Numbered from the stretch's first letter, positions 2,825 through 61,959 are shown. The stretch is 64,000 bases of DNA from Clostridia bacterium (GCA_017409455.1 JAFQSS010000011.1:29595-93594), one strand, 5' to 3'. Numbers and translations: made by a program. The notes: a model not told the origin generated them from the letters alone.

Positions 2825-3241
2825 TTATGGGTTTTGTGAAATTAAGATTGATTCTACTAGTTTAGTAGTTGTATTATATGTTAATTCTACAGTATACCTA
2901 TAATTTGTAGACACTTTTGCTGGTGATTTTGATAATGTATTGATATCGTCAATTAGAACTGTGTCTCCATTTTTTACTTCAACACAAGTATCTGTACCTT
3001 CTTGTGCATTATTGTGGCTAAATACTGTTTGAAGTAAAGCATTTACGTCTGCACCGCTTCTGCTATCTCCTTCATATTTTCTAAATTTGTCATTAAATGT
3101 TTGAATTTGGTATTGAGTCAAATCTCCTGCACCTTCTGCTTGTTCAGAAGCTGTATTGAATATACCAATTCCTAAAGATATTATTAAAATTGCTACTAAT
3201 ACTGCAGCTGCAATTAATAATGCTTTTGTTGCGTTCTCCAT
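2825..3241 (-). CDS. Pilin-like protein, MENAxKAL family (paralog of 4578..4997); candidate major pilin with its own promoter
   Basis: MENATKALLIAAAVLVAILIISLGIGIF N-terminal hydrophobic helix, 138 aa. TTGACA-17-TAAAAT on the minus strand in the 3242-3393 spacer. Strong SD (ggaggg). Confidence 0.6.
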   Translation of the reverse strand: MENATKALLIAAAVLVAILIISLGIGIFNTASEQAEGAGDLTQYQIQTFNDKFRKYEGDSRSGADVNALLQTVFSHNNAQEGTDTCVEVKNGDTVLIDDINTLSKSPAKVSTNYRYTVELTYNTTTKLVESILISQNP

Positions 3242-3276
3242 AGTTTATCCCTCCTTTTTCCACTTTTGTTTATTAA
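2975..3276. repeat. 302-bp direct repeat, copy 1 (pairs with 4731..5032)
   Basis: Covers the SD/5' leader plus the first ~88 codons of the pilin gene. Roughly 90% identical by eye to copy 2, with no indels. Confidence 0.85.
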
Positions 3277-3393
3277 CATTTTGCCTTAAATAGACATTTA
3301 TTTACATTTATTTTAACAATAATAATAACTAATGTCAATATTTTTTCATAATAAAAAATGATTATTTACTTTGTAGTTTAAATAATCATTTTT

Positions 3394-3921
3394 CTATCTC
3401 ATTCCATTTATTGCAATTGTTCCAGATGCTGTTGCTGTAATTATTTCAATATCAGAACCAGCAATATTATAATAAAAACTTTTTAATGATTGTGATAATG
3501 TTTTACTACTATTCTTAACTGTTACTGATATTGCATCTCCCTGTTTTAAAATAATTTTTCCATCACTATTATTAGTAGTATTTGTCCCTGATAGTCCCAT
3601 TATGTCTTCAATTTGACTTGTAAAAATTGAATAATATGTATTATTGTCTCCTATTTTAGTTGTATTTTTATCTAAAACTTTTATTTCCATGTCTATTTCA
3701 TACGTATTTCCAGAAGAAGTTAATTCATTAACAAATTTTTGATATGAATCATTCGTTATTTTCCCAGATTTTATAACTTCATTTACAAATTCTGATGTGG
3801 TTGTTTGGACTACTAATTGAGCTATATCATCAGATCTGTCTGCTATTAAAATTAATGGTACCATAAACATCATAATAGAAGCAATTATAATACCTATTAT
3901 TGATACTGTAGTATCCTCCAT
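3394..3921 (-). CDS. Pilus-associated protein with N-terminal hydrophobic helix (minor pilin / pseudopilin candidate)
   Basis: MEDTTVSIIGIIIASIMMFMVPLILIADR start, 175 aa, embedded among pilin-like genes; AT-rich 15-bp hairpin downstream at about 3355-3393. Confidence 0.4.
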   Translation of the reverse strand: MEDTTVSIIGIIIASIMMFMVPLILIADRSDDIAQLVVQTTTSEFVNEVIKSGKITNDSYQKFVNELTSSGNTYEIDMEIKVLDKNTTKIGDNNTYYSIFTSQIEDIMGLSGTNTTNNSDGKIILKQGDAISVTVKNSSKTLSQSLKSFYYNIAGSDIEIITATASGTIAINGMR

Positions 3922-3930
3922 GTTACCTCC

Positions 3931-4539
3931 TTATAGGCTTTGCAATACATATGTTATCACTCTTTTTTTGATTTGACTTGCCCCTTCACCTTCATAATAT
4001 TCTCCTAAATGCTCTGTAAATTGTGCATTTTTTAAATATTTATACAATCCATTAGTGTGTATAAGTTTGTTTATATATTTGTTTTTGACATCTTGCGATT
4101 TTTCTTTTAATACTTTTTCTCCACCTAATATTATATCTAAATGTTCTTGTGCTTGCTCTTTACTTGCAAATCCTTCATTTGAAAGTTCTATGCATGCTAC
4201 TTTTATTGGATTACCTTTATTATCTTTTTTTACCTTTCCAGTAGTTTCTGTATCATAATATAAAGGAAGTGGTGTCCCAGCATCATTCTGCATAAAATAA
4301 ATTACAATATTTTCTTCAAATGCTCTATACATTGATGTTACAACGGTTTCTATTCCTACTGTTCTAGTAAGGTCTTCTGATGGATTAACATATGTATATT
4401 CTGTTTCTCTATCCCTCATATTTGCTATTGATTGTATTGCTGAGCTGGCTTGAGAAAAAGAAGATATACTTAAAGTCAACGCCAATACAAACATCATTAC
4501 TGCAAATGCAATTTTTAATGCTTCAACTGCGTTTTCCAT
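3931..4539 (-). CDS. Pilin-like protein, MENAxKAL family (202 aa)
   Basis: MENAVEALKIAFAVMMFVLALTLSISSF N-terminus; same operon. Confidence 0.5.
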   Translation of the reverse strand: MENAVEALKIAFAVMMFVLALTLSISSFSQASSAIQSIANMRDRETEYTYVNPSEDLTRTVGIETVVTSMYRAFEENIVIYFMQNDAGTPLPLYYDTETTGKVKKDNKGNPIKVACIELSNEGFASKEQAQEHLDIILGGEKVLKEKSQDVKNKYINKLIHTNGLYKYLKNAQFTEHLGEYYEGEGASQIKKRVITYVLQSL

Positions 4540-4577
4540 AAGTATATCTCCTTTCTAATTTTTTTGTAATTTAATTG

Positions 4578-4997
4578 TTATTTTGCTACTGTAATTTTTT
4601 TAATTAATTTAGTAGCAGTATCATATTCACAAGTTACTTTATATCTAGCCCCTAAAGATACTTTTGCTGGTGATGCTGTTATAGAATTGCTTTTAGCTAC
4701 ACCTGTATGACCCTCAACAGCACTTACTTCTACTTCAACACAAGTAGATGTATCTTCTTGTGCATTATTGTGGCTAAATACAGTATCAAGTAAAGCGTTT
4801 ACATCTGAACCCGTTCTGCTATCTCCTTCATATTTTTTAAATTTGTCATTAAATGTTTGAATTTCATATTGAGTCAAATCTCCTGCATTCTCAGCTTGTT
4901 CAGATGCTGTATTAAATATACCAATTCCTAAAGATATAATTAAAATTGCTACTAATACTGCAGCTGCAATTAATAGTGCTTTTGTTGCGTTCTCCAT
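4578..4997 (-). CDS. Pilin-like protein, MENAxKAL family (paralog of 2825..3241)
   Basis: N-terminal ~88 aa nearly identical to 2825..3241; the C-terminal part diverges except for the SPAKVS..RY..TKL motif. Confidence 0.6.
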   Translation of the reverse strand: MENATKALLIAAAVLVAILIISLGIGIFNTASEQAENAGDLTQYEIQTFNDKFKKYEGDSRTGSDVNALLDTVFSHNNAQEDTSTCVEVEVSAVEGHTGVAKSNSITASPAKVSLGARYKVTCEYDTATKLIKKITVAK

Positions 4998-5032
4998 AGT
5001 TTATTCCTCCTTTTTCTACTTTTGTTTATTAA
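4731..5032. repeat. 302-bp direct repeat, copy 2 (pairs with 2975..3276)
   Basis: See copy 1. Confidence 0.85.
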
Positions 5033-5061
5033 AACTTGATAAATCTCTTTACCAAACTTTA

Positions 5062-5499
5062 TTAACTTGTTACGATTTGTTCAAATAATAAATATTTTAT
5101 TTTTCCTGTGTTTTTGTGGTATTCTATTTTTGAACATCTAAATTTTATATTTCCATAATATTGTATAAATTGTCCTATTCCTGCATTATAGAAAGTTTCC
5201 ATTTTATATGTTGTATCATTGTCTTGCATATATATTTCTATCTGTATAGAATTTTGTTCATTTGATATAAATACATCATTATTATCTTTTTCCACTTTAT
5301 TTTTAGCATTTTTATCAATTACTTTATTTATAAGTGTTCCTAATTCTATACCATATATTTCATTTTCTGTATATTCTTCAATTTCAGCTTTTTCTTTAAG
5401 TATTGTATTATACTCATTTTTATATGAAGAATACTTTACAAATATTATTATGACAACAATAATAATAATTGCAAATAATATTAATATTGACTTTTTCAT
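5062..5499 (-). CDS. N-terminally membrane-anchored protein of unknown function in the pilus operon
   Basis: MKKSILILFAIIIIVVIIIFVKY anchor, 145 aa. Confidence 0.35.
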   Translation of the reverse strand: MKKSILILFAIIIIVVIIIFVKYSSYKNEYNTILKEKAEIEEYTENEIYGIELGTLINKVIDKNAKNKVEKDNNDVFISNEQNSIQIEIYMQDNDTTYKMETFYNAGIGQFIQYYGNIKFRCSKIEYHKNTGKIKYLLFEQIVTS

Positions 5500-5561
5500 C
5501 TATATATCCTTATTATAACATTTTTTTCCTATCTTTTCAACTTTTTTCTATTTTTTGATTG

Positions 5562-6017
5562 TTATGGTACTGTATATTCGTGAAAATTTACTTCATAAAC
5601 TCTGTTTGTTGTTGTGTTTATTTTTACATCTGCATAACCACATCTATATTGTTTTCCAAGCTCAGAGGACAATAATTCCGCAGATTTTGAATTTATTTTA
5701 TTTTCTAAATTAGTAATTCCTGACATATTAATTGTAACATAATAATCTGTTTTTAAGTTATTTTCATATGCAGTATTAGCTGCTGTTACGATATCTTGTA
5801 TTGTTAACGTAAATTGGGTTGTTTTTGTATAATCATCATAATTAATAAATCTAGTAAATTGCTCATTAAATTGTTGTGTTCCTTTAATAGCTATTTCATC
5901 TTGTGTTGATTCAACATATTTACTTAAAGAGGTATATAAACTTACACCTAAAGATATAATCATGATTCCTATTAATACACCTGCTGCTATTAACAGTGCT
6001 TTAACTGCATTTTCCAT
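5562..6017 (-). CDS. Pilin-like protein, MENAxKAL family (151 aa)
   Basis: MENAVKALLIAAGVLIGIMIISLGVSLY; QQFNEQF motif after the helix. Confidence 0.5.
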   Translation of the reverse strand: MENAVKALLIAAGVLIGIMIISLGVSLYTSLSKYVESTQDEIAIKGTQQFNEQFTRFINYDDYTKTTQFTLTIQDIVTAANTAYENNLKTDYYVTINMSGITNLENKINSKSAELLSSELGKQYRCGYADVKINTTTNRVYEVNFHEYTVP

Positions 6018-6039
6018 GTTTTTTTCCTTTCAACAAATA

Positions 6040-6876
6040 TTAATCCATTACAGGTTTTTCTTTACCGTTTTCAATTTTGGTTTGAAGTTTAAAATTCATT
6101 TCAACAATTCTATTCGTTTCTGTATCATATTTTACTTCAGTACAATCAAATTTTGCTCTTTTAAATTGCATATATTGATAATATTGGATTGTTATATCTT
6201 TTATCACTTGAAGTCTGTCTGCTGAGAACTTATCTGTAGTCTTACCTGTTTCTTCATTTACTTCTATTATATTTTTTCCTAATAAATCCTCTAACATATA
6301 TGCTCTGTAAAGTCTATCATCTGCGTAGTCAAGGTCCTCTTCATCTGTTACAAATATATTGTAAATTTTTGATGCCAATAGTTGCAACTCTTTATCTGTA
6401 ATCCTTCCTAATTTTGCACTTGCTATCTGGCACATCTCGCTTGGAGTATTAGTAATTGCTATTAATTTTTTATCACTTACCCAATTATCTCCTGTTGTAT
6501 TTGTTATAACTGATGACATCAAATATTGATTTCTTTTCCCTTCATACCCTGTTTTAAACCCTTCTAGCACTTCTTCATTTCCTAAAGTTATTGTTACTTT
6601 AATTCTCTCATAATTAGTTTCATCAAAATATGATTCAGTTGCATTATAGTCGATAATTTTGTTCATAAGAGAAATTAAATCACTTCCTCTTATGTTGTTT
6701 CTATGATAATTTTCAAATTTCGCATTAAATTTTGTTGTTTGCTCTATTAATGTTGCTTCATGTTTTTGAGTATAATATGATGAAATATCATTGTACAACA
6801 CTACTAATAACGATACTATCATAATTGCCAAAAATATTCCTGCTGCAATTAACAGCGCTTTAGATGCATTCTCCAT
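6040..6876 (-). CDS. Large pilin-like protein, MENAxKAL family (278 aa; tip/adhesin candidate)
   Basis: MENASKALLIAAGIFLAIMIVSLLVVLY; TKFNAKFENY motif shared with the smaller pilins. Confidence 0.5.
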   Translation of the reverse strand: MENASKALLIAAGIFLAIMIVSLLVVLYNDISSYYTQKHEATLIEQTTKFNAKFENYHRNNIRGSDLISLMNKIIDYNATESYFDETNYERIKVTITLGNEEVLEGFKTGYEGKRNQYLMSSVITNTTGDNWVSDKKLIAITNTPSEMCQIASAKLGRITDKELQLLASKIYNIFVTDEEDLDYADDRLYRAYMLEDLLGKNIIEVNEETGKTTDKFSADRLQVIKDITIQYYQYMQFKRAKFDCTEVKYDTETNRIVEMNFKLQTKIENGKEKPVMD

Positions 6877-6879
6877 ATT

Positions 6880-8946
6880 TTATCCTCCCATTTGAGAAAA
6901 CGCCCCAGTCATATTTGTTAATCCTATTATTACTAAAGGAATAATTAAATATCCTACAAATAAACATATCATTGGTGCAAACCCCACAGCTTTACCTATT
7001 AATCCTTTTCTAGATATTAGTACATTATTTGCATCTTTTCTTTTTTCTTGATGATATTCTCTATCTGAATCTAATTCATCAAATGCTTCTCTAATAGGTA
7101 TTTTTTCTACTGCTGCTTGTAAGCTCTCTACAATTCTTATCAATTCTGGCTGTGTAACAGAATTTTTTAATTCTTCTAATGCTTCCCATGCACCAGCTTC
7201 GTAGTTATTTACACATCTCGATATTGGCTCTTTAAAAATGTTTGAATAACGTTCCAACCATTCTAAAATCATTTCAACATTAACTCTTTCAATTTTCATT
7301 AACATTAATATAATTGTCTGGAATTGCATTACTTCATTTTCCATTTCCATTTGCCTCATCTTTTTTTGAAATATCATCATCCAAACAGGCCCCATATATG
7401 CGATAATTGCAAATGTTATTGCTAGTAATATTTCAAACCACTGCATTGCCTCTGAATTTACTATTTTTAATTTGTTGTAAATTCTTACAGCATCTGTTTC
7501 TATTTTCTCGTCTCCTTCTTCATAATATGGAGACTTTGGTAATTCTCTTTCTATTTCTTCTACAGTTATTTTCAAATCACCTTTTAATTTGTCCAAAAAA
7601 TAGTTGTCTTGTTTTGTTAATGCATCAGCTTTCTTTTGGTTCTTTTCTGATAATTTTCCTAAAACTACTGTTTCTGTTGTTGGTTCAGTATAAACATAAT
7701 TTATAGCTATTTTATGTAAAAATCCAAATAAAATAATTGAAACTATTAATGTTGCTATTGCTAAAAATATTCTATTTACATATATCCATTCCATTTTTGC
7801 TTTTGAAGCAGAATCTTTCATAAGTTTCTGCATTTTTCTATAATCTTTCGTCCCTTTTTTGGGTACAAAAGCATTTATTGCTTGTTTTAAAATTGGCTTT
7901 TCATATACTTTCTCTTGCCATGGGTGGTCATTTGTTGCAATATCTACTTGTACTCCTCCATTGTCTTTTAATTTTCTTGTCAACATATAAGATATTACTG
8001 TTAATAGTACTATTAATATTTGTACTATCATGCCAACTTTTCCTTCATAAAAGCTAGCTGTAAATGCAAAATTTGAAATTGACCATGCTTTTAATGGTTC
8101 CAATAATAATACTGGTGCTATTGATATAAATGTTAAACTTTGAAATACATAATTTAATTTATCTCGTTTTAATATTTCAATTTGCATTTCTTGTGTAATG
8201 TTTGTGACATTCTTTAAATATAGTGAAACTCCATCTTCTTCTCTATCTCCAAATTCTTGAGTCAAATATGATATACCAGCAAATTCTTTTAAATAACTGT
8301 TTGGTGCTATATCATAATATTTTTCAAGTTCTGTCTCTGGGTCATCTGAACTTAATATTTCATAAATTTTTTCACCCTGTTTTGAAATACTTTTTTCATC
8401 ATCTAATGATACTTGATATATTGCTTCTTCCACCATGTTATATTCATGATATGCATGTCTGATTTCTGCAAAAAAATCTATCTGTTCTTTTAATAATTTA
8501 TTGTCAAGTTTATCAACCATTCCAATTACCAGAGTATCTGCTATAAATAGTTCAAATATTAGTAATATTGCCATTAATAAAAAGTTTCCTTTTGTTATCA
8601 CTATTGTTGCACTGGCTATTACAACAAATATTAACAGTGCTTTTAATAATATCTTTGCAGAATCTTTTCTCGTTACATATTCATCATCTATATTGATAAT
8701 TTCAAGTCTTCTTCTTATTTTGTATAAATATCTTTTTACAAAAGGTGTTTTTATAAGCATTATGTATAATTTTTGATAAAATATATCTAATGAAAAAGTA
8801 TTCGCCTTTGTACCTTCTTGTAACTTTTTCATTTGTTTGTACTCAGACTTTCCCATTTTTTTCATTAATATAAAATATGCAATCATTATTCCAGACAATG
8901 ATAACACAGCAATTAATATTACATATTTCATCATATCCATGTTCAT
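6880..8946 (-). CDS. Polytopic inner-membrane platform protein (TadB/TadC-like, possibly a fusion)
   Basis: 688 aa with several TM clusters separated by cytoplasmic helical regions; lies directly downstream of the secretion ATPase. Family assignment is by context only. Confidence 0.45.
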   Translation of the reverse strand: MNMDMMKYVILIAVLSLSGIMIAYFILMKKMGKSEYKQMKKLQEGTKANTFSLDIFYQKLYIMLIKTPFVKRYLYKIRRRLEIINIDDEYVTRKDSAKILLKALLIFVVIASATIVITKGNFLLMAILLIFELFIADTLVIGMVDKLDNKLLKEQIDFFAEIRHAYHEYNMVEEAIYQVSLDDEKSISKQGEKIYEILSSDDPETELEKYYDIAPNSYLKEFAGISYLTQEFGDREEDGVSLYLKNVTNITQEMQIEILKRDKLNYVFQSLTFISIAPVLLLEPLKAWSISNFAFTASFYEGKVGMIVQILIVLLTVISYMLTRKLKDNGGVQVDIATNDHPWQEKVYEKPILKQAINAFVPKKGTKDYRKMQKLMKDSASKAKMEWIYVNRIFLAIATLIVSIILFGFLHKIAINYVYTEPTTETVVLGKLSEKNQKKADALTKQDNYFLDKLKGDLKITVEEIERELPKSPYYEEGDEKIETDAVRIYNKLKIVNSEAMQWFEILLAITFAIIAYMGPVWMMIFQKKMRQMEMENEVMQFQTIILMLMKIERVNVEMILEWLERYSNIFKEPISRCVNNYEAGAWEALEELKNSVTQPELIRIVESLQAAVEKIPIREAFDELDSDREYHQEKRKDANNVLISRKGLIGKAVGFAPMICLFVGYLIIPLVIIGLTNMTGAFSQMGG

Positions 8947-8975
8947 GTTATAGAAACACCTCCTCTTTACTTTAG

Positions 8976-10895
8976 TTATCCTTCAATTTTTGCTCTTTTT
9001 GTTTTTTTCATTTGTTTTCCCCAATGTTTTTCAATAAATTCATCAAATCCTTCAACATCTGACTCATCCATATTTGCTCTCATGTCTTCTAAGTTTTTAT
9101 CTGATATTTTGTTTGTAATTACATATCCTCCATCAACATATTCTAGAATATTCCTATATTCATATAATTTTTGATCTGTAACTTTTGAAAAATATGTTGT
9201 CGCATTTTGGAAGAATTTTTCCATTTTTCCGTCCATTGTTTTTTCACCTTTGTAGTCATGGTCATATGTTAAATCATCTACAATTGGTATACACTCTGTA
9301 ACCCTTTGTATAAATCTTTTTCCTCTAAAGTCTTTTGATAAGTGAATATCAAAATTTAATACTTGTACTACTTGTTCTTCTGCTGTTTTTTCGTTTCTAA
9401 ATACACCTGCTCTTAACATTGAGTTACGCAATGCAGTTACTAAGTCTGGGAATGTTTTAGCATGGTGAGTAAATAGTGTAAATTTTGATGCAACCTGTGC
9501 AGATTGTATCATCCAAGATGCTACAGGGTCAGTAGCAACCTCACCTATGATGTTTACAGAACCATCTGTTTTCTTTTGAACGTCCAAACATTCTTGTCCT
9601 GCTATTGTATCTGTTTCACGCATTGATAAAATATTTCTTGTTGGATAAACTTTTCTTAAGTGTAACTCGAATGCAGTTTCTGTGATACGCAAGTTCATAG
9701 TTTCATATATATTTTCTATCATACCCATTAGAAGTGTTGTTTTACCACAACCTTGTTCACCAGTTATTGATGTAATTCTTGCACCTTTAACTAGATATTT
9801 TAATAAATCAATTGCTTCCTCTTTACCAGGTGTTTCTCCTGTCCATTGTTCAACTGTAGCTCTTTTTACGTCAAATTTTCTTACGAAAAACGCCCATGTT
9901 TCTGACATACTTGGTCTTACTACAACAACACGAGAGCCGTCTTTCATTTCATTTATTTTATAACCATTTGTATCTGATAATTGTCCTGGGTTATTGTATT
10001 TGTAAATATTTTGACATACCCTTTTTAATTCAGATTCTGTACCAAATGATAAAAATGCCAAACGAATTGATTTACCTTGGAAAAATATCCAAATACTATC
10101 ACATGCTCGAGGTACTTTGTGTTCTGCAACTTGGTCTAAATAGTCTCCATCTGTTTGTGCAACTTGGCTTAAGAAACTTTCTGGTAAACCAGATACACCT
10201 CCAGATACACCATCTATGTTCATATCTCTTATTTCATCTATTGAACTATATCCTTTATAATGTTGGTATATTCTTTGCACAACAACCTCTAATTTATCTT
10301 GAAATGTTAATACTATTTGCTCTTTTTCATATATGTCATTAATCTCATCCTCTGTTATTACATAACATGGTTTTGTTTCCCCAAGAATATATTTCAAAGT
10401 TGCTAAATTATATCTTTTTATTAATTGTGTTAATGCTTCATACCCAAATTCTTTTTTATACACATATATCAAAATGTCAAATTTATCTTGTGATGTAAGT
10501 AATGATGGCATGTCAAATGGTATAGCTGCTGATATATTTGTTTCATCAACACCATATTCTTGTGATAATAAATCTGCAATTAATTCTTTTACATATTTTT
10601 TATCGTTAACATCTCCATATGTACAACCCTTTAAAGCTTTTTTCAATGCATATTTTTTGCTTTTTCTACGCTTTAATTCTTCTTCAGATAATCCTATATC
10701 ATATAAGTTTACTTTTGTTATTTCATCTAATCTTTTTTTAATATAGTCTCTCATTGTTTCAAGAGTATATGTTTTTTCGTCTTTTTCAATTTCTTGTTCA
10801 ACTTCTGCATTTTGGTTTTTGTTTAAAAAGTATGTTAAACCTGCTGCTGCAGATATAATAACAATAAGCATTAACAATATATTTGTTATTGACAT
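8976..10895 (-). CDS. CpaF/TadA/VirB11-family secretion ATPase with N-terminal TM anchor and long N-terminal extension
   Basis: Walker A GEQGCGKTT, followed by ..RITETAFELHL.. and IIGEVATDP..TLFTHHAKT blocks that align to the CpaF pattern; N-terminus MSITNILLMLIVIISAAAGLTYFL is hydrophobic. Confidence 0.8.
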   Translation of the reverse strand: MSITNILLMLIVIISAAAGLTYFLNKNQNAEVEQEIEKDEKTYTLETMRDYIKKRLDEITKVNLYDIGLSEEELKRRKSKKYALKKALKGCTYGDVNDKKYVKELIADLLSQEYGVDETNISAAIPFDMPSLLTSQDKFDILIYVYKKEFGYEALTQLIKRYNLATLKYILGETKPCYVITEDEINDIYEKEQIVLTFQDKLEVVVQRIYQHYKGYSSIDEIRDMNIDGVSGGVSGLPESFLSQVAQTDGDYLDQVAEHKVPRACDSIWIFFQGKSIRLAFLSFGTESELKRVCQNIYKYNNPGQLSDTNGYKINEMKDGSRVVVVRPSMSETWAFFVRKFDVKRATVEQWTGETPGKEEAIDLLKYLVKGARITSITGEQGCGKTTLLMGMIENIYETMNLRITETAFELHLRKVYPTRNILSMRETDTIAGQECLDVQKKTDGSVNIIGEVATDPVASWMIQSAQVASKFTLFTHHAKTFPDLVTALRNSMLRAGVFRNEKTAEEQVVQVLNFDIHLSKDFRGKRFIQRVTECIPIVDDLTYDHDYKGEKTMDGKMEKFFQNATTYFSKVTDQKLYEYRNILEYVDGGYVITNKISDKNLEDMRANMDESDVEGFDEFIEKHWGKQMKKTKRAKIEG

Positions 10896-10899
10896 TTTT

Positions 10900-11766
10900 T
10901 CACCTCATTTTCATTTGCATATCTTGTAACTTTTTAACAATGTTGTTTGTTAAATTTAATGTACATTGCATAAAAATATAGTTTTCGTCTGTTTTATCTT
11001 TAACATTTTTTAATTTTAAAAATAAATCTACCACATCAGCCTCATCTGCTGCAGCCATATATAATAAATTAAATGGTAGCAAATCTAATTCTTGCTTTTG
11101 CCCTAAATATCTAGCTATATTTTTTGAATTATATTTATAATTACTCATGTATTTCCCAATAACTGGTATACATCTAGTCTTAGTCAATTCTGCATTAGCT
11201 TTTCTTAATTCATTATATCTATTTATACTTTCCAATCTTTGTGTAAGTACAAATACATTTACTTGTGATAAATTAAGAATTTCTTCTTGTGTTTTTCTGC
11301 TTATTCTTTTGTCTAAATCTACTATTACTATATCGTAATATTGATTCGCTGTTTTTATTAGTTCTATATAACTAGCCTCTATTTTTCTTAATTCTTCAAC
11401 ACTTGTTTCTGTTGTTCGTATTTTAGCTTCTGAAAAACCTGTAATTACTTCTAATCTGCCCTTAAAAACTACTTTTGTGTAATCTGTAATAATAGAAGGT
11501 GTTAATTTATTACTTGTTATAAGTTTGTATAAACCTTCTATTCCATTTTCAACTGCAATATTGTTATTTTTTCCATTGCTAAAAAATGATGTGTTTTTAC
11601 TAGTATCGCCCCAAAAACAATTTTTCATTGTAGAATCACCAAAACTAGTTGATATTAGCAAAATTTTGCTATTACGTTCTATTGCCATTCTTGTTGCGAC
11701 AGCTACTGATGTCAACGTTCTTCCAGATTGTTCTCTACTATCATTCCAAAAAGTTATTATTGACAT
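10900..11766 (-). CDS. ParA/MinD-like protein with degenerate P-loop (TadZ/CpaE-like)
   Basis: ITFWNDSREQSGRTLTSVAVATRMA..LLISTS, then YDIVIVDLD (Walker B-like); position upstream of the ATPase. Confidence 0.5.
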   Translation of the reverse strand: MSIITFWNDSREQSGRTLTSVAVATRMAIERNSKILLISTSFGDSTMKNCFWGDTSKNTSFFSNGKNNNIAVENGIEGLYKLITSNKLTPSIITDYTKVVFKGRLEVITGFSEAKIRTTETSVEELRKIEASYIELIKTANQYYDIVIVDLDKRISRKTQEEILNLSQVNVFVLTQRLESINRYNELRKANAELTKTRCIPVIGKYMSNYKYNSKNIARYLGQKQELDLLPFNLLYMAAADEADVVDLFLKLKNVKDKTDENYIFMQCTLNLTNNIVKKLQDMQMKMR

Positions 11767-11778
11767 TTTCTAACTCCT

Positions 11779-12465
11779 TTAAAGTTCTTTTATTATATTT
11801 TTAATCGTTTTTTCTCCTATTTCCGGACATATGCTATTTGTTAAAAATTGAATATTATCTCTATATTCATTACTTAAATTTCTAAATTTAATTTTTGAAA
11901 TCCTTTGATTTTCCATTATGGCCGAAAAATCTCCATTTTCTAATGGAAAATATATTTTAGATTCATCCCATATCACCTTTGTGCCTAAGGCCAAATATTC
12001 AAAATAGTTTTCTTCTTCTTTTAACATGTCTTTCGAGAAGAATATTCCGGTTATACGCTTAGGAATGCCTAATTGGCTTAATATTTCAATACCTTTTTTC
12101 AAAGAATATGAATCATAAGATGTTACAAAATATATTTTGTCTGAAGATTGTAATCCAAAAGTAGCAAATCCTTCAAAATTATCTGTATCTATTATAAAAA
12201 AATCATAATCCAAATTTTCATTTTCTTGTAATCCAATATATTGTTTTAATTTTTCTATATTTTCGAATCCAACCGCTACATCTATATCTTCGTAAGTAGT
12301 TATATATGACTTTGTTGGGTTTATAACTGGAACTATATATTTGCATTTTTGAGTTATTGTATTATCTAATATTAGAACTTTCTTATTAACCATTGTCAAA
12401 ATTTTTGCTATACTTAATATTATATCAGTTTTATCATAGGCTCCTACAAACCCTATCTTCTTCAT
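11779..12465 (-). CDS. Second ParA/MinD-like protein with degenerate P-loop
   Basis: MKKIGFVGAYDKTDIILSIAKIL..VLILDNT, DYDFFIIDTD Walker B-like. Confidence 0.45.
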   Translation of the reverse strand: MKKIGFVGAYDKTDIILSIAKILTMVNKKVLILDNTITQKCKYIVPVINPTKSYITTYEDIDVAVGFENIEKLKQYIGLQENENLDYDFFIIDTDNFEGFATFGLQSSDKIYFVTSYDSYSLKKGIEILSQLGIPKRITGIFFSKDMLKEEENYFEYLALGTKVIWDESKIYFPLENGDFSAIMENQRISKIKFRNLSNEYRDNIQFLTNSICPEIGEKTIKNIIKEL

Positions 12466-12540
12466 ATGTTCTTTTCCTTTCTTGCAACTAATTGCATTTG
12501 TTTAAATCTACAGTAAGGGCATATATATGCCCTTATCTGC

Positions 12541-13824
12541 TTAATAATTTAATGATTCTAAATATTCTTGTCTTGTTGAAATTGAATTTCCAATTTCTTC
12601 GTCCATTGAACTTTTTATATTATCGAAATAATTTGTTTCATTATTTATTAATCCTTGTAAATAGTTGTTTCTTAAATTTTTAGCTGCTTCTGTATATCTA
12701 GTTGCCAATTCTTGTTTCGCTATTTCAACAACATTTGGATTTGATTGTATTTGTGCAGTTACAGAAGCATTTGGTACATATGTTGGCAATGCAGCTTCTT
12801 GATTTGCTGGATCAACATATTTAGTTACATATAATTTTGAACCTGCTAATCCATAAGCTTCTACTATTGCACTTGACATTGATAATATTTCATCTTCTCT
12901 TAAATTAACTCTTATAGTATCTGTCACGTATGTTCCATCAGCATTTAATGGTATGTCTACTTGTACTTTTGATACTACAATAAAATCTTGTCCTCCTGGT
13001 GACATTAATCTAATATCTATATAATCATTTGTCATCAAATCCATTGGTAAAACTAACATATTATATTGTTGTTGTCTTACATCATCAGTTATAATTTCAT
13101 CTGATTGTACTATAAATTGTGGTGTAATAACTGTATTCATATTCATATTTACTTTTGCAAGTACTGGTACATTTTTTATTTCTATATATTGTTTTACTCT
13201 TGCTTTTGCACCTGTATTTAAAGTTGATGTATCTAACTTGTATATGTAGAATTCTCCTGTACTATTTTCTTGGTATACTCTTGTTATTTGATCATTCCCT
13301 TGTGTATCAACAAAAAACATTCCATTTTCATCTTGTGTAACACCTTCTGTTGTTTTTACTTTTTCTAAAGTTCCATTTACATCTACATAGTAATCTCCTG
13401 TTGCAACTTTATTACCTTTTGAATCTTCAAACTGGTTGCCTGTATTTTCTATAACTTCTATTATTGTATCTCCTTTATCTAAATACAATCCATATTTACC
13501 AGTATTAATAGGCTCTCCTTCTTTTGTTTGTAAAAACCATGAATCAATCACTTCAAATGTTGCAGTGGCATTACTTGGTACTGTATCTCTATTAACTTGT
13601 TGAAGTGAAAACATGTCTTCAGTTAATATTTGCCCTGCTTTTACATCTTGTGTAAGTGTATATACATTTATTTTAGCTGCTTGTTCAGCTACTAATTGAT
13701 CATTTTTTTGTTTTAACATAAGAAATAGAAGTACAATTACTACTCCTGCAACTAATAAAGTTACTGTTACTCCTAATAAAAATGCATTTCTTGTTTTTCT
13801 TTGCATTGGATTTGATGGCATCAT
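12541..13824 (-). CDS. CpaB/RcpC-like pilus assembly protein (TM anchor + SAF-like domain)
   Basis: N-terminal TM; VKAGQILTEDMF SAF-like segment; C-terminal NDYIDIRLM..IRVNLREDEILSMSSAIVEAYGLAGSKLYV matches the CpaB pattern. Confidence 0.6.
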   Translation of the reverse strand: MMPSNPMQRKTRNAFLLGVTVTLLVAGVVIVLLFLMLKQKNDQLVAEQAAKINVYTLTQDVKAGQILTEDMFSLQQVNRDTVPSNATATFEVIDSWFLQTKEGEPINTGKYGLYLDKGDTIIEVIENTGNQFEDSKGNKVATGDYYVDVNGTLEKVKTTEGVTQDENGMFFVDTQGNDQITRVYQENSTGEFYIYKLDTSTLNTGAKARVKQYIEIKNVPVLAKVNMNMNTVITPQFIVQSDEIITDDVRQQQYNMLVLPMDLMTNDYIDIRLMSPGGQDFIVVSKVQVDIPLNADGTYVTDTIRVNLREDEILSMSSAIVEAYGLAGSKLYVTKYVDPANQEAALPTYVPNASVTAQIQSNPNVVEIAKQELATRYTEAAKNLRNNYLQGLINNETNYFDNIKSSMDEEIGNSISTRQEYLESLNY

Positions 13825-14821: not shown

Positions 14822-14867
14822 AATTTGGGGACGGTCCTTTTTTTCGCGAATTTTGGGACAGTCCTTT
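14822..14867. repeat. 46-bp dyad-symmetric GC-rich element (GGACGGTCC - T-tract - TTCGCGAA - GGACAGTCC); second copy at 61914..61959
   Basis: aatttggggacggtcctttttttcgcgaattttgggacagtccttt; 4 mismatches to the reverse complement of 61914..61959. Confidence 0.8.
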
Positions 14868-28754: not shown

Positions 28755-29279
28755 CTATGCTTCTGGTTCTATTAAACCATAGTTTTTATTATCTTTTAAT
28801 CTATGTATTACATTTACTTTTCCAGTTTCAACATTTACAAATGTTAAAAATGTATTAGTAGGTCTTTCTTGTAATTTTAATTTTGCATCTTCTGGTGTCA
28901 TAGGTTTTATTTCATAATATGATGTTTTAACGATTTCATCACTTACTTCATGTTCTGGCACTTCAACTTCTAATACTTTTAATGTTGAATCTTTTAACAT
29001 TCTTTCTTTTTTAGTTTTGAATTTTCTAATTTGTCCTTCTAATATATCTATATCTTTATCTATAGATGCATATAAATCCTTATCTTCTGTTACTGCTCTA
29101 AATACTTCCCCATTTGCTGATACTTTAATTTCTGCAATTTGTAAAGCTTTTTCTACTTTAATTACTACATCAGCTTCTGCATTTTCAAAGTATTTGTCAA
29201 TTCTCTCCATTTTTCTTTCTACATAATCGTTTATTGCTTCTGTTACCTTTAGTTCCTTTCCTGTTATTTTTATTTGCAT
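28755..29279 (-). CDS. hpf: Ribosome hibernation-promoting factor (long form)
   Basis: MQIKITGKELKVTEAINDYVERK.. plus C-terminal dimerisation domain. Confidence 0.9.
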   Translation of the reverse strand: MQIKITGKELKVTEAINDYVERKMERIDKYFENAEADVVIKVEKALQIAEIKVSANGEVFRAVTEDKDLYASIDKDIDILEGQIRKFKTKKERMLKDSTLKVLEVEVPEHEVSDEIVKTSYYEIKPMTPEDAKLKLQERPTNTFLTFVNVETGKVNVIHRLKDNKNYGLIEPEA

Positions 29280-29323: not shown

Positions 29324-31123
29324 CTATATTATAACCTTAATTCCTTTTTTTGGCAAGTATTTACTTAAAACTTTTACCTCGTTTACCACGGGGACGGAGA
29401 TAATGGTAAATTTTAGCGGAAGCCTCCGGCCACCTCCGCCTCCTCCAAAGGAACCACCTCCGCCTCCTCCAGAAGAGAATCCTCCTCCTCCAGCCGAATA
29501 GCTTTCAGCTCTTGATTTAGCGATTTTTGCAGCACTTATACCTTTATGAGAACTCATATGTACAAACATTATATAATCATAAGATGTAAAGTTTGATTGT
29601 TCGATTATTTCTGGATATATATCTTTAAATTGTTTTGCAACTTTTTTAGCAATTCCCATAATTTGTGCAAAAATCAAATATTCTTCAAATAACTGAACTT
29701 CAACCGCTTCTCTTTCTTTTATAAGTGTATATTCATTTAAATACCTTTTCAATCCTGCTAGTTCAAGTGCTTCTTGTTTTAGTTCGGGTGTTGCAACATA
29801 TACTTTACTTTTAAATATTTTAAGGTTAACTTTTTCTTTAACTTCTATCAAACCTTGTTCTATTAATTTATTTTGTTCGGCAGATATAATTGTATCAAAC
29901 CAAGAAAGAACTTTTGAATAACTATGTTCACACCATTTTTCAAATTCTTTACTTTCCAAATATCCATCTTTACTTGCTGTATATAGCATTTTAAACAATT
30001 CTTTTTCTTTAGGCTCTAAAAATATTTCAGGATTTGTTTCTTTTAAAACAATAACTGTATTTTCTTTTTTGAATATTAATCCAGTTTCTTTTTGTTCTAT
30101 TCTAATTACACCATCTTTAAGCCACTTCAAAATTATAGCCCCTAAAATGTCCGTCTTTTTTTCTATTACGTTATATTTATATCCTATATAATATGCTCTA
30201 AATATATCTTTTTGACATGGTATATCTCTAAAGTATGGAACATCTTTTGGAATCTTCTTTCCTACAGTTCCATATTCAAATTTAGTTTCAACACTTGCTA
30301 TTCCTGCAGATATTCCTATAATAGCAAAAAACATTATCATTCCAAATGTAGTAACAATAGCTATCACATCTACATCATCTAATGAAGATTGTGTATATGT
30401 TTCTGAACCTTCTTCAGCCATATCATAATAATATTCAAAATTATCATTTAATTTATTAGTTGTATCAAAAGTCCCAAGAGGAAATTTTACTAAAATAGTC
30501 ATATATTCATCAGTTGCTAATCTTCCATCTGACTGCATTTCAATATATCCATCATACACATATGCTGTTCCACCATAATTTCCATATCCCCAAACATCAA
30601 TTGTATCTTGGATTTTAAAATTAGTATAAATTTTAATATACATATTCCCTATTGATGTTGAAAAATCATATGGAATTAAAGTCCAATATATAATTTGTGA
30701 ATCTGTTGTTTCAGACACAAAATTAGTAATCGTATATTTTGCAGTATAAGTATGTGAGCCATATTTACTTATTCCCCAACAAAGTTCAACTCCATTAGAA
30801 ATTTTGTTTATTCCACATTTATTTGATTTACTTGCTAATGTTCCAGATGTATTCCAACTTGATAATGTTGTATACTGTGTATTTCCATCTTTAACAGTCA
30901 AATCTTTTATTTCGGAATTTCCCAAATTATAATATGGATGATAAACCTCTGTTCCTTGTGTTACATTGCATTTCCAAGTTTCTGTAACATATGCATCACC
31001 ATTGTCATCAACAAATATATCCATAGATATACTTTGTATTGAATTTGCTTCTACTATATTTCCAATTGAAAACACAATAAATGCAAATATATAAATACCT
31101 AATATTTTTAATGTTTTTCTCAT
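29324..31123 (-). CDS. DUF2207-type membrane protein with C-terminal Gly-rich tail
   Basis: Signal peptide, large extracytoplasmic domain, TM helices, C-terminal GGGGFSSGGGGGGSFGGGGGG; the last ~30 aa are read from the inverted-repeat element and the hpf promoter region. Confidence 0.7.
   Translation of the reverse strand: MRKTLKILGIYIFAFIVFSIGNIVEANSIQSISMDIFVDDNGDAYVTETWKCNVTQGTEVYHPYYNLGNSEIKDLTVKDGNTQYTTLSSWNTSGTLASKSNKCGINKISNGVELCWGISKYGSHTYTAKYTITNFVSETTDSQIIYWTLIPYDFSTSIGNMYIKIYTNFKIQDTIDVWGYGNYGGTAYVYDGYIEMQSDGRLATDEYMTILVKFPLGTFDTTNKLNDNFEYYYDMAEEGSETYTQSSLDDVDVIAIVTTFGMIMFFAIIGISAGIASVETKFEYGTVGKKIPKDVPYFRDIPCQKDIFRAYYIGYKYNVIEKKTDILGAIILKWLKDGVIRIEQKETGLIFKKENTVIVLKETNPEIFLEPKEKELFKMLYTASKDGYLESKEFEKWCEHSYSKVLSWFDTIISAEQNKLIEQGLIEVKEKVNLKIFKSKVYVATPELKQEALELAGLKRYLNEYTLIKEREAVEVQLFEEYLIFAQIMGIAKKVAKQFKDIYPEIIEQSNFTSYDYIMFVHMSSHKGISAAKIAKSRAESYSAGGGGFSSGGGGGGSFGGGGGGRRLPLKFTIISVPVVNEVKVLSKYLPKKGIKVII
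29328..29356 (-). promoter_or_regulatory. Putative sigma-A promoter of hpf (TTGCCA-17-TATAAT)
   Basis: Hexamers at 29351-29356 and 29328-29333 on the minus strand; lies inside the 3' tail of the DUF2207 ORF. Confidence 0.5.
29382..29413. repeat. 32-bp inverted repeat, left copy
   Basis: tttaccacggggacggagataatggtaaattt is the exact reverse complement of 31187..31218. Confidence 0.95.
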
Positions 31124-31186
31124 ACTTATCCCCCTTTTTTCAAAATAATTATCTCACAACACAAAAAATTTAGCAATACTCACAAA

Positions 31187-31218
31187 AAATTTACCATTAT
31201 CTCCGTCCCCGTGGTAAA
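31187..31218. repeat. 32-bp inverted repeat, right copy
   Basis: aaatttaccattatctccgtccccgtggtaaa; 10-bp self-complementary arms around a 15-nt asymmetric core. Confidence 0.95.
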
Positions 31219-31274
31219 TTTCAGTTGAAATTCTAGCATTTTTATGGCATAATATATATGTTCGGAGGTTTATT

Positions 31275-33641
31275 ATGAACAATAATTTAATGAAATTAGA
31301 ATTTAATAAAATATTAGATGCAATATCAAATTATTGCAAAACATATATAGGTAAAAAATATGTTTCTGAGCTTCGCCCTTCACAAGTTCGTGAAGAAGTT
31401 CAAAAAATGCTTAATGAAACAAGTCAAGGAGTAATTCTTATTCAAAGAAACAGTACCCCACCACTTGGTTCAATAGCAGATATAACTGTATATATAAAAA
31501 CATTAGATGGATGTGGCACACTTAGTATTAAAGCATTATTAGAATTACAAAACATTTTACAAATGTCTGCAAATTTAAAAGATTATTTTGCAAAAGACCA
31601 TCTTGCAACGTCAGATTTTTCAGCAATAGAACAATATTTTAATGATTTATATGTAAATCCTAGTATTGTTTCTACTTTTGCTAAATCGATTATCGATGAA
31701 GAAACAATTGCAGATTCCGCTTCATCTAAATTACAAGATATTCGTAGACGTCAAAGAAAAATTGAACAAGATATCCGTTCAAAACTTAACACAATTCTAC
31801 ATTCTTCAACTTATTCAAAATATATGAGAGAAAATCTTGTTACAATTAGAAATGGTCGTTTTGTAATTCCTGTAAAAGAAGAATATCGCGGTGCAGTAAA
31901 AGGTTTTATACATGATATGTCAAGTAGTGGTTCAACAGTATTTATAGAGCCAATTTCAGTATTTGACTTAAATAATGAATTATCTAATTTGCACATTGAA
32001 GAAAGTCTTGAAATAGAAAGAATTTTACAAAACTTAAGTGGATTATTATACCCATACACAAAAGAACTTCAAAATAATGTTGAAATTATTGGAAAACTTG
32101 ACTTTATTTTTGCCAAAGCACATTATTCATTACAATTGCATTGTACAACTCCTGTTTTAAATGATGACAAAATAATCAATTTAAAAAATGCTCGTCATCC
32201 TTTAATCTCACCTGAACATGTTGTTCCAAGTACAATTGAATTAGGAAAAGATTTTTCAACTTTAATAATTACAGGACCAAATACAGGTGGTAAAACTGTC
32301 ACATTAAAAACAATTGGTTTATTAACTGTTATGGCATGTAGTGGATTAAATATTCCTGCAGATGAACCTTCTAGCATATATGTATTTGACAATGTTTTCG
32401 CAGATATTGGGGATGAACAAAGTATTAGTGAATCTTTAAGTACATTTTCATCACATATGAGTAACATTGTTGGAATCACTCGTAGTGCATCTACTGATAG
32501 CCTTATTCTTGTAGATGAATTAGGTTCTGGAACAGATCCACTTGAAGGAGCACATCTTGCAATAAGTATTTTACAACATTTCACTGAGCTTGGAACAATT
32601 ACTGTTGCAACATCACATTATCAAGAATTAAAAAAATACGCATTGGTTACTCCTGGATTCAAAAATGCAAGTGTTGAATTTGACATAGAAAACTTAAGAC
32701 CAACTTATCGTTTATTAGTTGGAATTCCTGGAAAAAGTAATGCTTTTGCTATAAGTAGAAAATTAGGTCTAGCTGAAACAATTATTGAACGTGCATCTTC
32801 TATGATAGATAAAGAGACTGTAAATTTAGAAGATTTATTAAAAAGTATTTATGACAAAAAATCACAAATTGAAGATGAAAAAGCTCGTACAGCTATTGTA
32901 TTGCAAGAAGCTGAAGAATTAAAGAAAAATTTAAAACATCAAAATACAGATGTATTAAACAAAGAAAAAGAATTAATAGCTAATGCTAAACAAGAAGCTA
33001 AACAAATTTTACTTGATGCTAAAGAAACTGCAAATTCTTTAATAAAAGATATTGGAAATAGCACTTCCGCTTCTCAGGCAAATAAACTTAGAAATAAATT
33101 AAATGAGGAAATTTCTTCTATCAACAAAACAAACATAGAAGATGTTGAAATAGCTCATCCTATTTCAAGAGAAGATATAAAAGTTGGATTAGATGTTTTT
33201 GTTGCTAATTTGAAATCTGAAGGTAAAGTAATATCTAATATTTCAAAAGATGATACTGTTCAAGTTCAAATAGGTGTTATGAAATTAAAAGTTGATATAA
33301 AACAATTACAAGAAATTACTAAATCAAATAAACCTTCTGATGATAAAATAACTAATTATAACTATTCAGGTCGTTCATCATTAAAATCACAACATGTTAG
33401 TCCTGAAATCAATTTAATTGGTTTAACTGTTGATGAGGCAATTCCTATTATAGATAAATATTTAGATGATTGCTATATGGCAAAACTTTCATCTGCCCGC
33501 ATTGTTCACGGCAAAGGTACTGGTGCTTTACGAAATGGTATCCATCGTTATTTAAAAACAAATAAGCTTGTTGATACTTTTAGATTAGGCACTTTTGGCG
33601 AAGGTGAAATGGGTGTTACTATTGTTAGTTTAAAATTTTAG
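31275..33641 (+). CDS. mutS2: Endonuclease MutS2 (MutS-II ATPase + Smr domain)
   Basis: GPNTGGKT Walker A, DELGSGTDP, C-terminal Smr (IVHGKGTGALR). Confidence 0.95.
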   Translation: MNNNLMKLEFNKILDAISNYCKTYIGKKYVSELRPSQVREEVQKMLNETSQGVILIQRNSTPPLGSIADITVYIKTLDGCGTLSIKALLELQNILQMSANLKDYFAKDHLATSDFSAIEQYFNDLYVNPSIVSTFAKSIIDEETIADSASSKLQDIRRRQRKIEQDIRSKLNTILHSSTYSKYMRENLVTIRNGRFVIPVKEEYRGAVKGFIHDMSSSGSTVFIEPISVFDLNNELSNLHIEESLEIERILQNLSGLLYPYTKELQNNVEIIGKLDFIFAKAHYSLQLHCTTPVLNDDKIINLKNARHPLISPEHVVPSTIELGKDFSTLIITGPNTGGKTVTLKTIGLLTVMACSGLNIPADEPSSIYVFDNVFADIGDEQSISESLSTFSSHMSNIVGITRSASTDSLILVDELGSGTDPLEGAHLAISILQHFTELGTITVATSHYQELKKYALVTPGFKNASVEFDIENLRPTYRLLVGIPGKSNAFAISRKLGLAETIIERASSMIDKETVNLEDLLKSIYDKKSQIEDEKARTAIVLQEAEELKKNLKHQNTDVLNKEKELIANAKQEAKQILLDAKETANSLIKDIGNSTSASQANKLRNKLNEEISSINKTNIEDVEIAHPISREDIKVGLDVFVANLKSEGKVISNISKDDTVQVQIGVMKLKVDIKQLQEITKSNKPSDDKITNYNYSGRSSLKSQHVSPEINLIGLTVDEAIPIIDKYLDDCYMAKLSSARIVHGKGTGALRNGIHRYLKTNKLVDTFRLGTFGEGEMGVTIVSLKF

Positions 33642-34415: not shown

Positions 34416-34766
34416 GGGGATGTAATGGTTTCGACATTACATTTGAAGCATGAATAGCGAGTAGTGGATTCTCGTTAGCCACTATAAAAACGGGAAATTT
34501 AAATATAAACGCTGATAATAGAGAATTAGCATTTGCTGCTTAGTTGCGGCAACGCCTGTTAAAATATCCCCACATATTTTAATTTGGTGTCATTTAGTGG
34601 GAAACAAAGCTGTTTGTTCTACGAAAACAGTGGGTATTTAGTAGATATATTTGATAGTCGTTTGTTTATTAATGATTATTAAATGAATTTTAATAATAAA
34701 CTGCACTCGGAGAAGTTTGTGTGAATTGTGTTATGGACAGGAGTTCGACTCTCCTCATCTCCACCA
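34416..34766 (+). ncRNA. ssrA: tmRNA (SsrA)
   Basis: 5' GGGGATGTAATGGTTTCGAC..; 3' GGAGTTCGACTCTCCTCATCTCCACCA; tag ORF gct gat aat aga gaa tta gca ttt gct gct tag (ADNRELAFAA if translation resumes at GCU); TTGCAA-17-TATAAT upstream. Confidence 0.9.
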
Positions 34767-34773: not shown

Positions 34774-34810
34774 AAAAACCAGCATTTCGCTGGTTTTCTT
34801 TTATTTTCTC
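34774..34810 (+). repeat. 37-bp direct repeat, copy 1 (contains the tmRNA terminator hairpin)
   Basis: aaaaaccagcatttcgctggttttcttttattttctc, identical at 37396..37432. Confidence 0.9.
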
Positions 34811-37395: not shown

Positions 37396-37432
37396 AAAAA
37401 CCAGCATTTCGCTGGTTTTCTTTTATTTTCTC
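37396..37432 (+). repeat. 37-bp direct repeat, copy 2
   Basis: Identical to 34774..34810. Confidence 0.9.
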
Positions 37433-47980: not shown

Positions 47981-49000
47981 TTATAAATCTTTTAATCTCT
48001 TTTCTATTTCTTCTGGTGAAGGTAACAAATTTTTCATTTGCTCTGGTAAAGTATCTCTTATTTGATAAGAGGCTACACCGATTGGTTTGTAACTATCATT
48101 TAAAGCATACTCTACAATTGTTCTATTTTTATTTTTACATATTATAATTCCTATTGATGGGTTTTCATGTTCCATTTTAACTTGTTTATCTAATGCAGTT
48201 AAATAAAATTGAAGTTGTCCTACAAATTCAGGCTTAAAATCGCCTATTTTCAATTCAATAGCAACTAAACTTTTTAAACTTCTATGATATAGTAATAAAT
48301 CAATATAAAAATCATCTCCACCAACATTTATATGATATTGATTTCCCATAAAAGCAAAATTCCCACCCATTTCTTCAAGAAATGCTCTTATGTTATTTAA
48401 TAAACTTTCTTCTAACTCTCTTTCTGAATGTTTGTCAGAAAGTTCCATAAAATCAAAAATATACTCATCTTTAACTGCTAATTTTGCTTGATTTACATAT
48501 TTTTCTGGCAATGTTTCATCAAAATTAGTTTGGTTAAGTAAATATTTTTCATAAGACTTATTTTCAATATGATTAATTAACACATCTTTTGTCCAACCAT
48601 ATTTTTTAGTCATTTTTATATAAAATTCTCTTTCAAGTTGTTCTTTGCATTTCTCCATTATGGCGATATTTTTGCTCCAGCTAATTTCTCGCACTAATGG
48701 TGCGAGATTTTCAGCATTACTATATGTAACATAAAAATTTCTCATTCTCCATAAATTACTTGAAGAAAATCCTTTAACGCCGGGGAACTCTTTTTGAATT
48801 TCTTTTGCTAACACTTCAACTATTGATTTTCCCCAACCTTTTTCATTTTGTTGATTATATATTTCTTGTCCAATACCCCAATATAAGCTTATTAAAGTCT
48901 GATTTACTGCTTTCATAGCTTCATATTGGCTATTTCTAATTTTATTTTTTATTTCTCCTATAAAATTTTTGTAATCTTCACTTATCAAATCATTCTCCAT
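47981..49000 (-). CDS. YhcG/DUF1016-family PDDEXK nuclease
   Basis: N-terminal YWGIGQEI..GWGKSIVE..FS.SNLWRMRNFY and C-terminal D..ELK nuclease core pattern. Confidence 0.75.
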   Translation of the reverse strand: MENDLISEDYKNFIGEIKNKIRNSQYEAMKAVNQTLISLYWGIGQEIYNQQNEKGWGKSIVEVLAKEIQKEFPGVKGFSSSNLWRMRNFYVTYSNAENLAPLVREISWSKNIAIMEKCKEQLEREFYIKMTKKYGWTKDVLINHIENKSYEKYLLNQTNFDETLPEKYVNQAKLAVKDEYIFDFMELSDKHSERELEESLLNNIRAFLEEMGGNFAFMGNQYHINVGGDDFYIDLLLYHRSLKSLVAIELKIGDFKPEFVGQLQFYLTALDKQVKMEHENPSIGIIICKNKNRTIVEYALNDSYKPIGVASYQIRDTLPEQMKNLLPSPEEIEKRLKDL

Positions 49001-61913: not shown

Positions 61914-61959
61914 AAAGGACTGTCCCGAGTTTCGCGAAGAAAAGGACCGTCCCCAAATT
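61914..61959. repeat. Second copy of the 46-bp dyad-symmetric GC-rich element
   Basis: aaaggactgtcccgagtttcgcgaagaaaaggaccgtccccaaatt; abuts the uvrA stop codon. Confidence 0.8.

Follow-up and report, generated by a model that had tools for sequence, protein, structure and literature searches.

Inverted copies of a short palindromic element around a DUF2207 gene of an uncultured Clostridia bacterium and their probable origin by insertion

The repeats and the gene between them

The 64,000-nt stretch of a Clostridia bacterium genome considered here (GCA_017409455.1, JAFQSS010000011.1:29595-93594; the window in what follows) harbors a DUF2207 gene that is flanked by hpf (28755-29279, minus strand) and by mutS2 (31275-33641, plus strand), after which spoVT and the tmRNA gene follow. 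On either side of the DUF2207 gene stands a copy of a short palindromic element, and the two copies are inverted with respect to each other. We have analyzed how this pair may have arisen. A repeat search of the window returned the two copies as an inverted repeat of 33 nt that is 100% complementary, with 1771 nt between the arms; a preliminary description of the locus had already seen a perfect inverted repeat around the DUF2207 gene and its promoter, measured there as 32 nt, one base shorter. The 32-mer and its 15-nt core are each found twice in the window, even when up to three mismatches are allowed, and two matches were obtained in none of 100 shuffles of the window. Both copies are palindromes of the hairpin type with a 15-nt loop of 60% G+C. 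Their self-complementary arms, which had been put at 7-10 bp, are indeed 7 bp long in the left copy (TTTACCA/TGGTAAA) and 10 bp long in the right copy (AAATTTACCA/TGGTAAATTT). The left copy is located between the ancestral DUF2207 stop and the hpf promoter, the right copy within the spacer of about 48 nt that separates the divergent -35 boxes of DUF2207 and mutS2. An assembly artefact is ruled out, since independent assemblies of other lineages (the loci L003 and L060) carry the same paired layout.

The predicted DUF2207 promoter, proposed earlier from its -35 and -10 boxes, was recovered by the promoter scan (Table 1) and is kept in relatives both with and without the palindromic element. The DUF2207 open reading frame (ORF) passes through the left copy, which it renders as KFTIISVPVVN, and ends with the tail ..KFTIISVPVVNEVKVLSKYLPKKGIKVII*. 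The lack of a stop at the usual end of the gene had been described correctly; its cause, however, is a separate 1-nt insertion and not the repeat. This insertion sits 12-15 nt before the ancestral TAA, which is out of frame in the window and shares 2 nt with the inner end of the left repeat. We compared the C-termini of the 120 best DUF2207 homologues, which are 70-100% identical and all come from metagenomes or metagenome-assembled genomes (MAGs) of uncultured Clostridia. They form two classes, one ending in ..SFGGGGGGGGFR* and the other continuing from ..SFGGGGGGRRLPLK into a variable tail of 0-35 residues. These tails are translated intergenic DNA, and in the homologue P0069 (782 aa) the tail continues into hpf, giving a fusion. 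The 1-nt frameshift is common to a large clade that includes repeat-free members (P0002, P0017, P0107/L057 and the P0043 type), and as judged by these alignments the read-through therefore predates the repeat and does not depend on it.

The DUF2207 gene is also a mosaic. When positions 29423-30450 of the window are compared with L003 and L004, the C-terminal half is closest to L004, which is free of the element and has the in-frame stop, while the flanks and hpf of the window are closest to L002, L003 and L057. The alignments indicate allelic recombination inside the gene. An exchange of the gene as a cassette at the repeats was considered and rejected, as the mosaic breakpoints (around 30450 and 29500) lie inside the gene and not at the repeats. 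A diversity-generating retroelement, considered in view of the variable C-terminal half, was likewise discarded: the repeat searches gave no template repeat, and the Pfam scans gave no reverse-transcriptase family at E <= 1e-5.

Table 1. Positions of the features at the DUF2207 locus, counted from the first nucleotide of the window
Feature	Position	Strand	Remarks
Left (downstream) palindromic copy	29382..29414	.	Arms TTTACCA/TGGTAAA, core CGGGGACGGAGATAA on the plus strand
Right (upstream) palindromic copy	31186..31218	.	Exact reverse complement of the left copy; 10-bp arms span 31187-31221
DUF2207 open frame, 599 aa	29324..31123	-	PF09972 and PF20990 domains; includes a 33-aa read-through tail
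Predicted DUF2207 promoter, TTGCTA-17-GATAAT with TG	31148..31176	-	Promoter scan; inside the bracketed segment
Predicted hpf promoter, TTGCCA-17-TATAAT	29328..29356	-	Promoter scan; 25 nt from the left copy
Predicted mutS2 promoter, TTGAAA-17-CATAAT with TG	31225..31253	+	Promoter scan; 6 nt from the right copy
Ancestral DUF2207 stop TAA (..GGGGGGGGFR*)	29413..29415	-	DNA alignment and C-termini of 120 homologues
1-nt frameshifting insertion	29428..29432	-	GGTGGCCGGAGG in the window versus GGCGG-TGGTGG in L004/L005 (DNA alignment)

Distribution of the element in related genomes

The comparison of synteny in relatives, to which the preliminary description had pointed as a check on an inversion of the segment, gives no sign of one. 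In all 11 related loci the order spoVT-mutS2-DUF2207-hpf is kept and the orientation of DUF2207 is unchanged; what varies is the element. Neither side of the gene has a copy in L004, L005 and L057, among which the DUF2207 protein of L004/L005 is 88% identical to that of the window, and the downstream site also appears to be empty in the genome encoding P0002. A downstream copy only is found in L059, L061 and L062, and orthologous downstream copies are present in L002, L003, L041, L053 and L059-L062. Both copies occur in the window, L002, L003 and L060. The two copies match with a single mismatch in L003 and form a perfect inverted repeat of 35 nt in L060, where GTTAAT replaces the GATAAT of the window; in L002 they have diverged from each other by one indel and several substitutions. 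The loci L054-L056 carry the same arms with different and unrelated cores on the two sides of DUF2207 (GTGGGGACACTCATTTT upstream, ATAAACCCGCCTACA downstream) and hold additional partial and nested copies. In L053 the core of the downstream copy is reverse-complemented at the same site. Altogether, the arms TTTACCA/TGGTAAA are common to copies with three different cores. From this distribution, the downstream copy, between the DUF2207 stop and the hpf promoter, is apparently the older and more widespread one and the upstream copy is restricted to a subset of lineages; relatives do not seem to maintain the two copies as matched partners. The perfect identity of the two copies in the window is not remarkable in itself, as only about two differences would be expected by our own estimate from the flank divergence of about 6% between the window and L003.

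The element also resides at other loci. A scan with the 18-mer TTTACCAYGGGGACGGAG of one genome per species, covering 185,579 species, gave one relevant match, and a looser pattern gave two (L041 and L047) among 241 million metagenome records. In L013 (MAG JAZSAX01) only 2 nt separate the element from the stop of a preceding nrdG-like radical-SAM activase gene, and the rpsU promoter follows about 20 nt downstream; the DUF2207 locus of the same MAG (L057) is the empty one mentioned above. In L041 it is located upstream of hpf, with another gene occupying the place of DUF2207, and in L047 it follows the stop of a vanW-like gene by 8 nt. The vanW orthologue of the window, 69% identical to that of L047, has no copy. 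All copies are intergenic relative to the ancestral reading frames, and as far as the sequences tell the family occupies at least four distinct intergenic sites in the clade, always at very low copy number. An origin from phage, plasmid or virus was rejected: searches of phage and plasmid records by blastn with a 36-mer returned only chance partial matches, and a pattern scan of the viral contigs of IMG/VR returned three chance matches, in contigs of 52-67% G+C.

The mutS2-DUF2207 spacer is tolerant of insertions, because an unrelated fold-back element of about 300 nt has also been inserted there in L059 and L062. This larger element, which is MITE-like (MITE, miniature inverted-repeat transposable element) and folds back over its whole length, is found at about 2640-2940 in L059, 1010-1300 in L062 and 960-1260 in L047. 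In L059 and L062 it fills the spacer in which the window has the small element, and the third copy, in L047, stands immediately 3' of the small element. Its inner arms are conserved, its outer arms of about 44 nt are wholly different between L059 and L062, and it has no Rfam match. A further observation concerns L005, where a large serine recombinase (299-1891, 530 aa, Resolvase and Recombinase domains) is encoded about 4 kb from the element-free DUF2207 locus. It stands in place of the TspO-region genes of L004, and the tmRNA-proximal side of this locus is a variable island site.

Insertion weighed against its alternatives

On the comparisons described above, we consider it probable that the repeats around DUF2207 are two insertions of a clade-restricted, low-copy palindromic element, similar to repetitive extragenic palindromes (REPs) or MITEs, in permissive intergenic spacers. 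Such an element would measure about 25-35 bp, with conserved arms (A)TTTACCA / TGGTAAA(T) around a G+C-rich asymmetric core of 13-17 nt, and the family would be confined to a clade of uncultured Clostridia of about 27% G+C, with one to few copies per genome. Its copies would settle in permissive A/T-rich spacers, just after stop codons or between promoters. Duplication would most likely occur by a trans-acting activity that recognizes the arms, which is suggested because the arms are conserved and the cores interchangeable, or else by hairpin-mediated template switching. After insertion a copy would drift and decay, and at one and the same site its core might come to face either way; the flipped core of L053 suggests re-insertion or a hairpin-mediated inversion of the loop. 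The inverted pair around DUF2207 would then be a by-product of two insertions and not a switch, just as the reading of the ORF into the left copy would be a by-product of the older frameshift. The presence or absence of copies at orthologous sites, the copies at other loci, the shared arms, the lack of compensatory changes and the lack of a recombinase in the window are observed directly; how the element spreads and that it lacks a function are what we infer. The preliminary description had offered two hairpin-forming, REP-like or mobile copies as its second choice. This is what the comparative data bear out; the many dispersed copies named there among the refuting conditions for an inversion were not seen, as there are one to two copies per genome or window.

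Several points weigh against an origin by insertion. No clear target-site duplication is visible when filled and empty sites are compared, the flanks being A/T-rich and of the TAAA type. Pfam scans of the window identified neither a transposase for the element nor a RAYT, the transposase that mobilizes REPs, and classical REP or MITE families have far more copies; at the genome level our analysis of this organism covers the window of about 64 kb. In all four lineages with both copies, these are inverted relative to each other. At position 19 of the element, the window and L003 have A in both copies, while L060 and L002 have T in both, as does every single copy; this pattern needs one conversion between the copies or one parallel change. 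It carries little weight, because only one site is involved and the locus is mosaic and recombines. Finally, the 29-nt element is identical in L041, L059 and L060 though the immediate flanks differ by indels, and this identity could reflect constraint.

The element might also be a cis-regulatory site. A dimeric regulator might bind the dyad TTTACCA-N15-TGGTAAA upstream of the hpf, rpsU, DUF2207 and mutS2 promoters, and the two copies of the window would then be two operators of one regulon. We regard this as unlikely. It is true that most copies are directly upstream of predicted sigma-70-type promoters (those of the four genes just named), that the arms are conserved despite differing cores in L054, and that hpf and rpsU are both ribosome-associated. 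However, the gap between the element and the closest -35 box is 6, 13, 16, 24, 25, 27 or 37 nt depending on the copy, and a spread of 6-37 nt argues against an operator whose action depends on position. The element is missing from close relatives that have the same promoters (L004, L057), and the L047 copy has no convincing downstream promoter. At loci that are otherwise unrelated it forms a self-contained insert of about 25-33 bp whose asymmetric G+C-rich core is identical, which points to copy-and-paste and not to evolution in situ. Nor is the element significantly more conserved than its surroundings: between the window and L003 the difference from the flanks is not significant (Fisher p = 0.15), and between the window and L002 the reverse is seen, with 8 of 58 element positions differing against 18 of 260 in the flanks (counted by eye), so that the L002 copy decays at least as fast as its flanks. 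The architecture is also unlike a dif/Xer-like site, a DnaA box, a Fur box, a CtsR box or a BirA operator, as judged by eye and with no formal test.

The preliminary description had favored an invertible segment; a programmed inversion of the gene we consider quite improbable. The two 33-bp sites would serve as substrates for a tyrosine or serine recombinase whose gene lies elsewhere in the genome, and recombination between them would turn over DUF2207 together with its promoter. The C-terminal tail would switch between the 22 aa that follow the repeat and FS*, the read-through would be redirected from hpf to mutS2, and single copies at other loci would represent sites that are orphaned or have decayed. 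If this were true, DUF2207 would be a whole-gene invertible cassette whose tail is swapped, and either hpf, with its role in ribosome hibernation, or mutS2 would receive the read-through. The perfect inverted repeats of the window and of L060, the single mismatch of L003 and the agreement of the position-19 base within each genome fit such a site pair. Furthermore, the orientation could affect read-through, as the terminator scan calls no terminator in the DUF2207-hpf interval, and inverting 29415-31185 in silico leaves an open frame for a 583-aa protein that ends in ..PVVNFS*, which reproduces the flipped end given in the preliminary description. Against this stands first that no recombinase was found: as had been noted, none of the ORFs of at least 90 aa in the window has a tyrosine or serine recombinase domain in the Pfam scans, in which a YhgA-like Transposase_31 (60266-61321) and a YhcG PDDEXK nuclease (47981-49000) are the sole mobility-related matches. 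Second, only one orientation has been recorded in the assemblies. All seven contigs with DUF2207 and hpf proteins identical to those of the window show the same arrangement, and an assembly with DUF2207 on the other strand, sought by way of the exact hpf protein, was not returned. No tail ending in ..NFS* occurs among the 120 best homologues, and clustering at 90% leaves P0001, P0026 and P0009 each alone in its cluster. Third, the copies do not seem to be kept as a pair in the relatives, where they have diverged (L002), have unrelated cores (L054), are single or are missing altogether in many lineages, and occur singly at other loci. In addition, the gene and its own promoter would flip together, with no obvious switching logic, and arms of 7-10 bp around an asymmetric 15-nt core fit no recombinase site architecture that we know of.

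An RNA hairpin at the 3' end of DUF2207 and other genes, serving as a terminator or as a stabilizer of transcript ends, is most improbable: the element does lie 0-10 nt after the stop at three loci (DUF2207 in its ancestral frame, the nrdG-like gene and vanW), and for the right copy the fold is better than for shuffled sequence (z = -2.3 to -2.8), but the left copy folds like shuffles (z = -0.3), no intrinsic terminator is called by the scan on the A/U-rich stem with its 15-nt loop, the stereotyped terminator of this genome, AAAAAGGGACCNGGTCCCTTTTT, is quite different, and the upstream copy sits between divergent promoters where no transcript should end. Selection on the hairpin was rejected as well, since the seven arm pairs show no compensatory change across 14 copies and each departure breaks pairing, and a known RNA family was rejected because the element has no match in Rfam 15 at the gathering threshold or at E <= 10.

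Other repeats of the window and known systems

The window contains further repeats and genes that we mention for completeness. A perfect direct repeat of 37 nt, AAAAACCAGCATTTCGCTGGTTTTCTTTTATTTTCTC, is found at 34774-34810 and 37396-37432. Its first copy begins 8 nt after the tmRNA gene (34416-34766), and between the two copies lie 2.6 kb in which no ORF exceeds 108 aa and Pfam gives no match. The arrangement resembles an att-type duplication that remains from the integration at ssrA of an element since degenerated. A second repeat family, AATTTGGGGACGGTCCTTTTTTTCGCGAATTTTGGGACAGTCCTTT, is represented by an inverted pair of 46 nt with 91% complementarity, 47 kb apart (14822-14867 and 61914-61959). 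The octamer GGGGACGG is common to this family and to the core of the 33-nt element, and tandem relatives of the family occur between spoVT and mutS2 in L004/L005 (L004 3440-3517). The terminator AAAAAGGGACCNGGTCCCTTTTT, a palindrome, is present in six copies (34348, 42203, 51278, 51305 and 52569, with a variant at 14879), which are suggested to be a repeat family and not to have evolved independently because they are highly uniform. On the minus strand, 2825-13824 holds eleven consecutive ORFs of 138-688 aa without a Pfam match at E <= 1e-5; four of them share a 5' segment of about 96 nt that encodes a hydrophobic N-terminus, and the run may be a pilin-like or other secreted protein cluster. 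The switch in GC skew at 31.2 kb is not of the origin type, since minus-strand genes resume after 42 kb; it is only a local change of gene orientation.

Among known systems, intergenic invertons that partly overlap a gene recode gene ends (PhaseFinder/PhaVa; bioRxiv 10.1101/2023.03.11.532203). The DUF2207 locus resembles them in its perfect inverted repeat around a segment of about 1.8 kb, with one arm overlapping the end of an ORF such that inversion would alter the protein tail. Unlike in those systems, one orientation is observed, the vicinity encodes no invertase, the pair does not seem to be conserved in relatives, the sequence occurs singly elsewhere, and a whole gene with its promoter would flip. 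A perfect inverted repeat around a gene is exactly what inverton predictors look for, and the present case, which is most simply explained by two tiny palindromic insertions, calls for caution. In the pdif modules of Acinetobacter plasmids, genes are bracketed by inverted XerC/XerD sites. The likeness here is a single gene between short inverted sites of about 30 bp; in contrast to pdif sites, however, the element does not have the 11-6-11 layout with inner dyad symmetry, it is chromosomal, and the gene holds the same locus in relatives free of the sites.

Minute inversions of hairpin loops have reportedly been described in plastid non-coding DNA by Kelchner and Wendel in 1996. The loop of our element is similarly found in either orientation at one orthologous site (L053 compared with the window, L060 and others). 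The plastid case concerns a different kingdom and replication context, and for the element an independent re-insertion in the opposite direction would explain the flipped loop equally well.

MITEs share with the element terminal arms that are conserved across subfamilies with different interiors, polymorphic insertion, and nested insertion as in L054. They differ in that no clear target-site duplication is seen here, and the element, with its 25-35 bp, is several-fold smaller than any MITE we know of. We also know of no parent insertion sequence whose ends match it.

REPs, including the compound forms BIME and REPIN, are palindromes mobilized by RAYT transposases (PMC3116915, PMC3337134), and a REPIN consists of two inverted REPs separated by a spacer (PMC3337134). 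The element has in common with REPs that it is an imperfect palindrome of about 30 bp, strictly extragenic, often placed just after stops and in both orientations, sometimes clustered (L054), and polymorphic in presence and absence between relatives. It differs in number, with one to two copies per window or genome (two in the 64 kb) against tens to hundreds of REPs; in the lack of a RAYT (an IS200/IS605-like Y1 transposase) in the window; and in what is conserved, A/T-rich arms and a G+C-rich loop in place of a G+C-rich stem. The spacer of a REPIN is short, in the range of tens of bases, whereas the two inverted copies of the element are 1771 bp apart. To our knowledge, the known REP/RAYT systems are mainly proteobacterial. 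The element described here would be an unusually short (about 30 bp) and low-copy family of uncultured low-G+C Clostridia, in which A/T-rich arms are conserved and G+C-rich cores are interchangeable, and an enzyme recognizing these arms, if found, would extend REP-like systems to the Clostridia.

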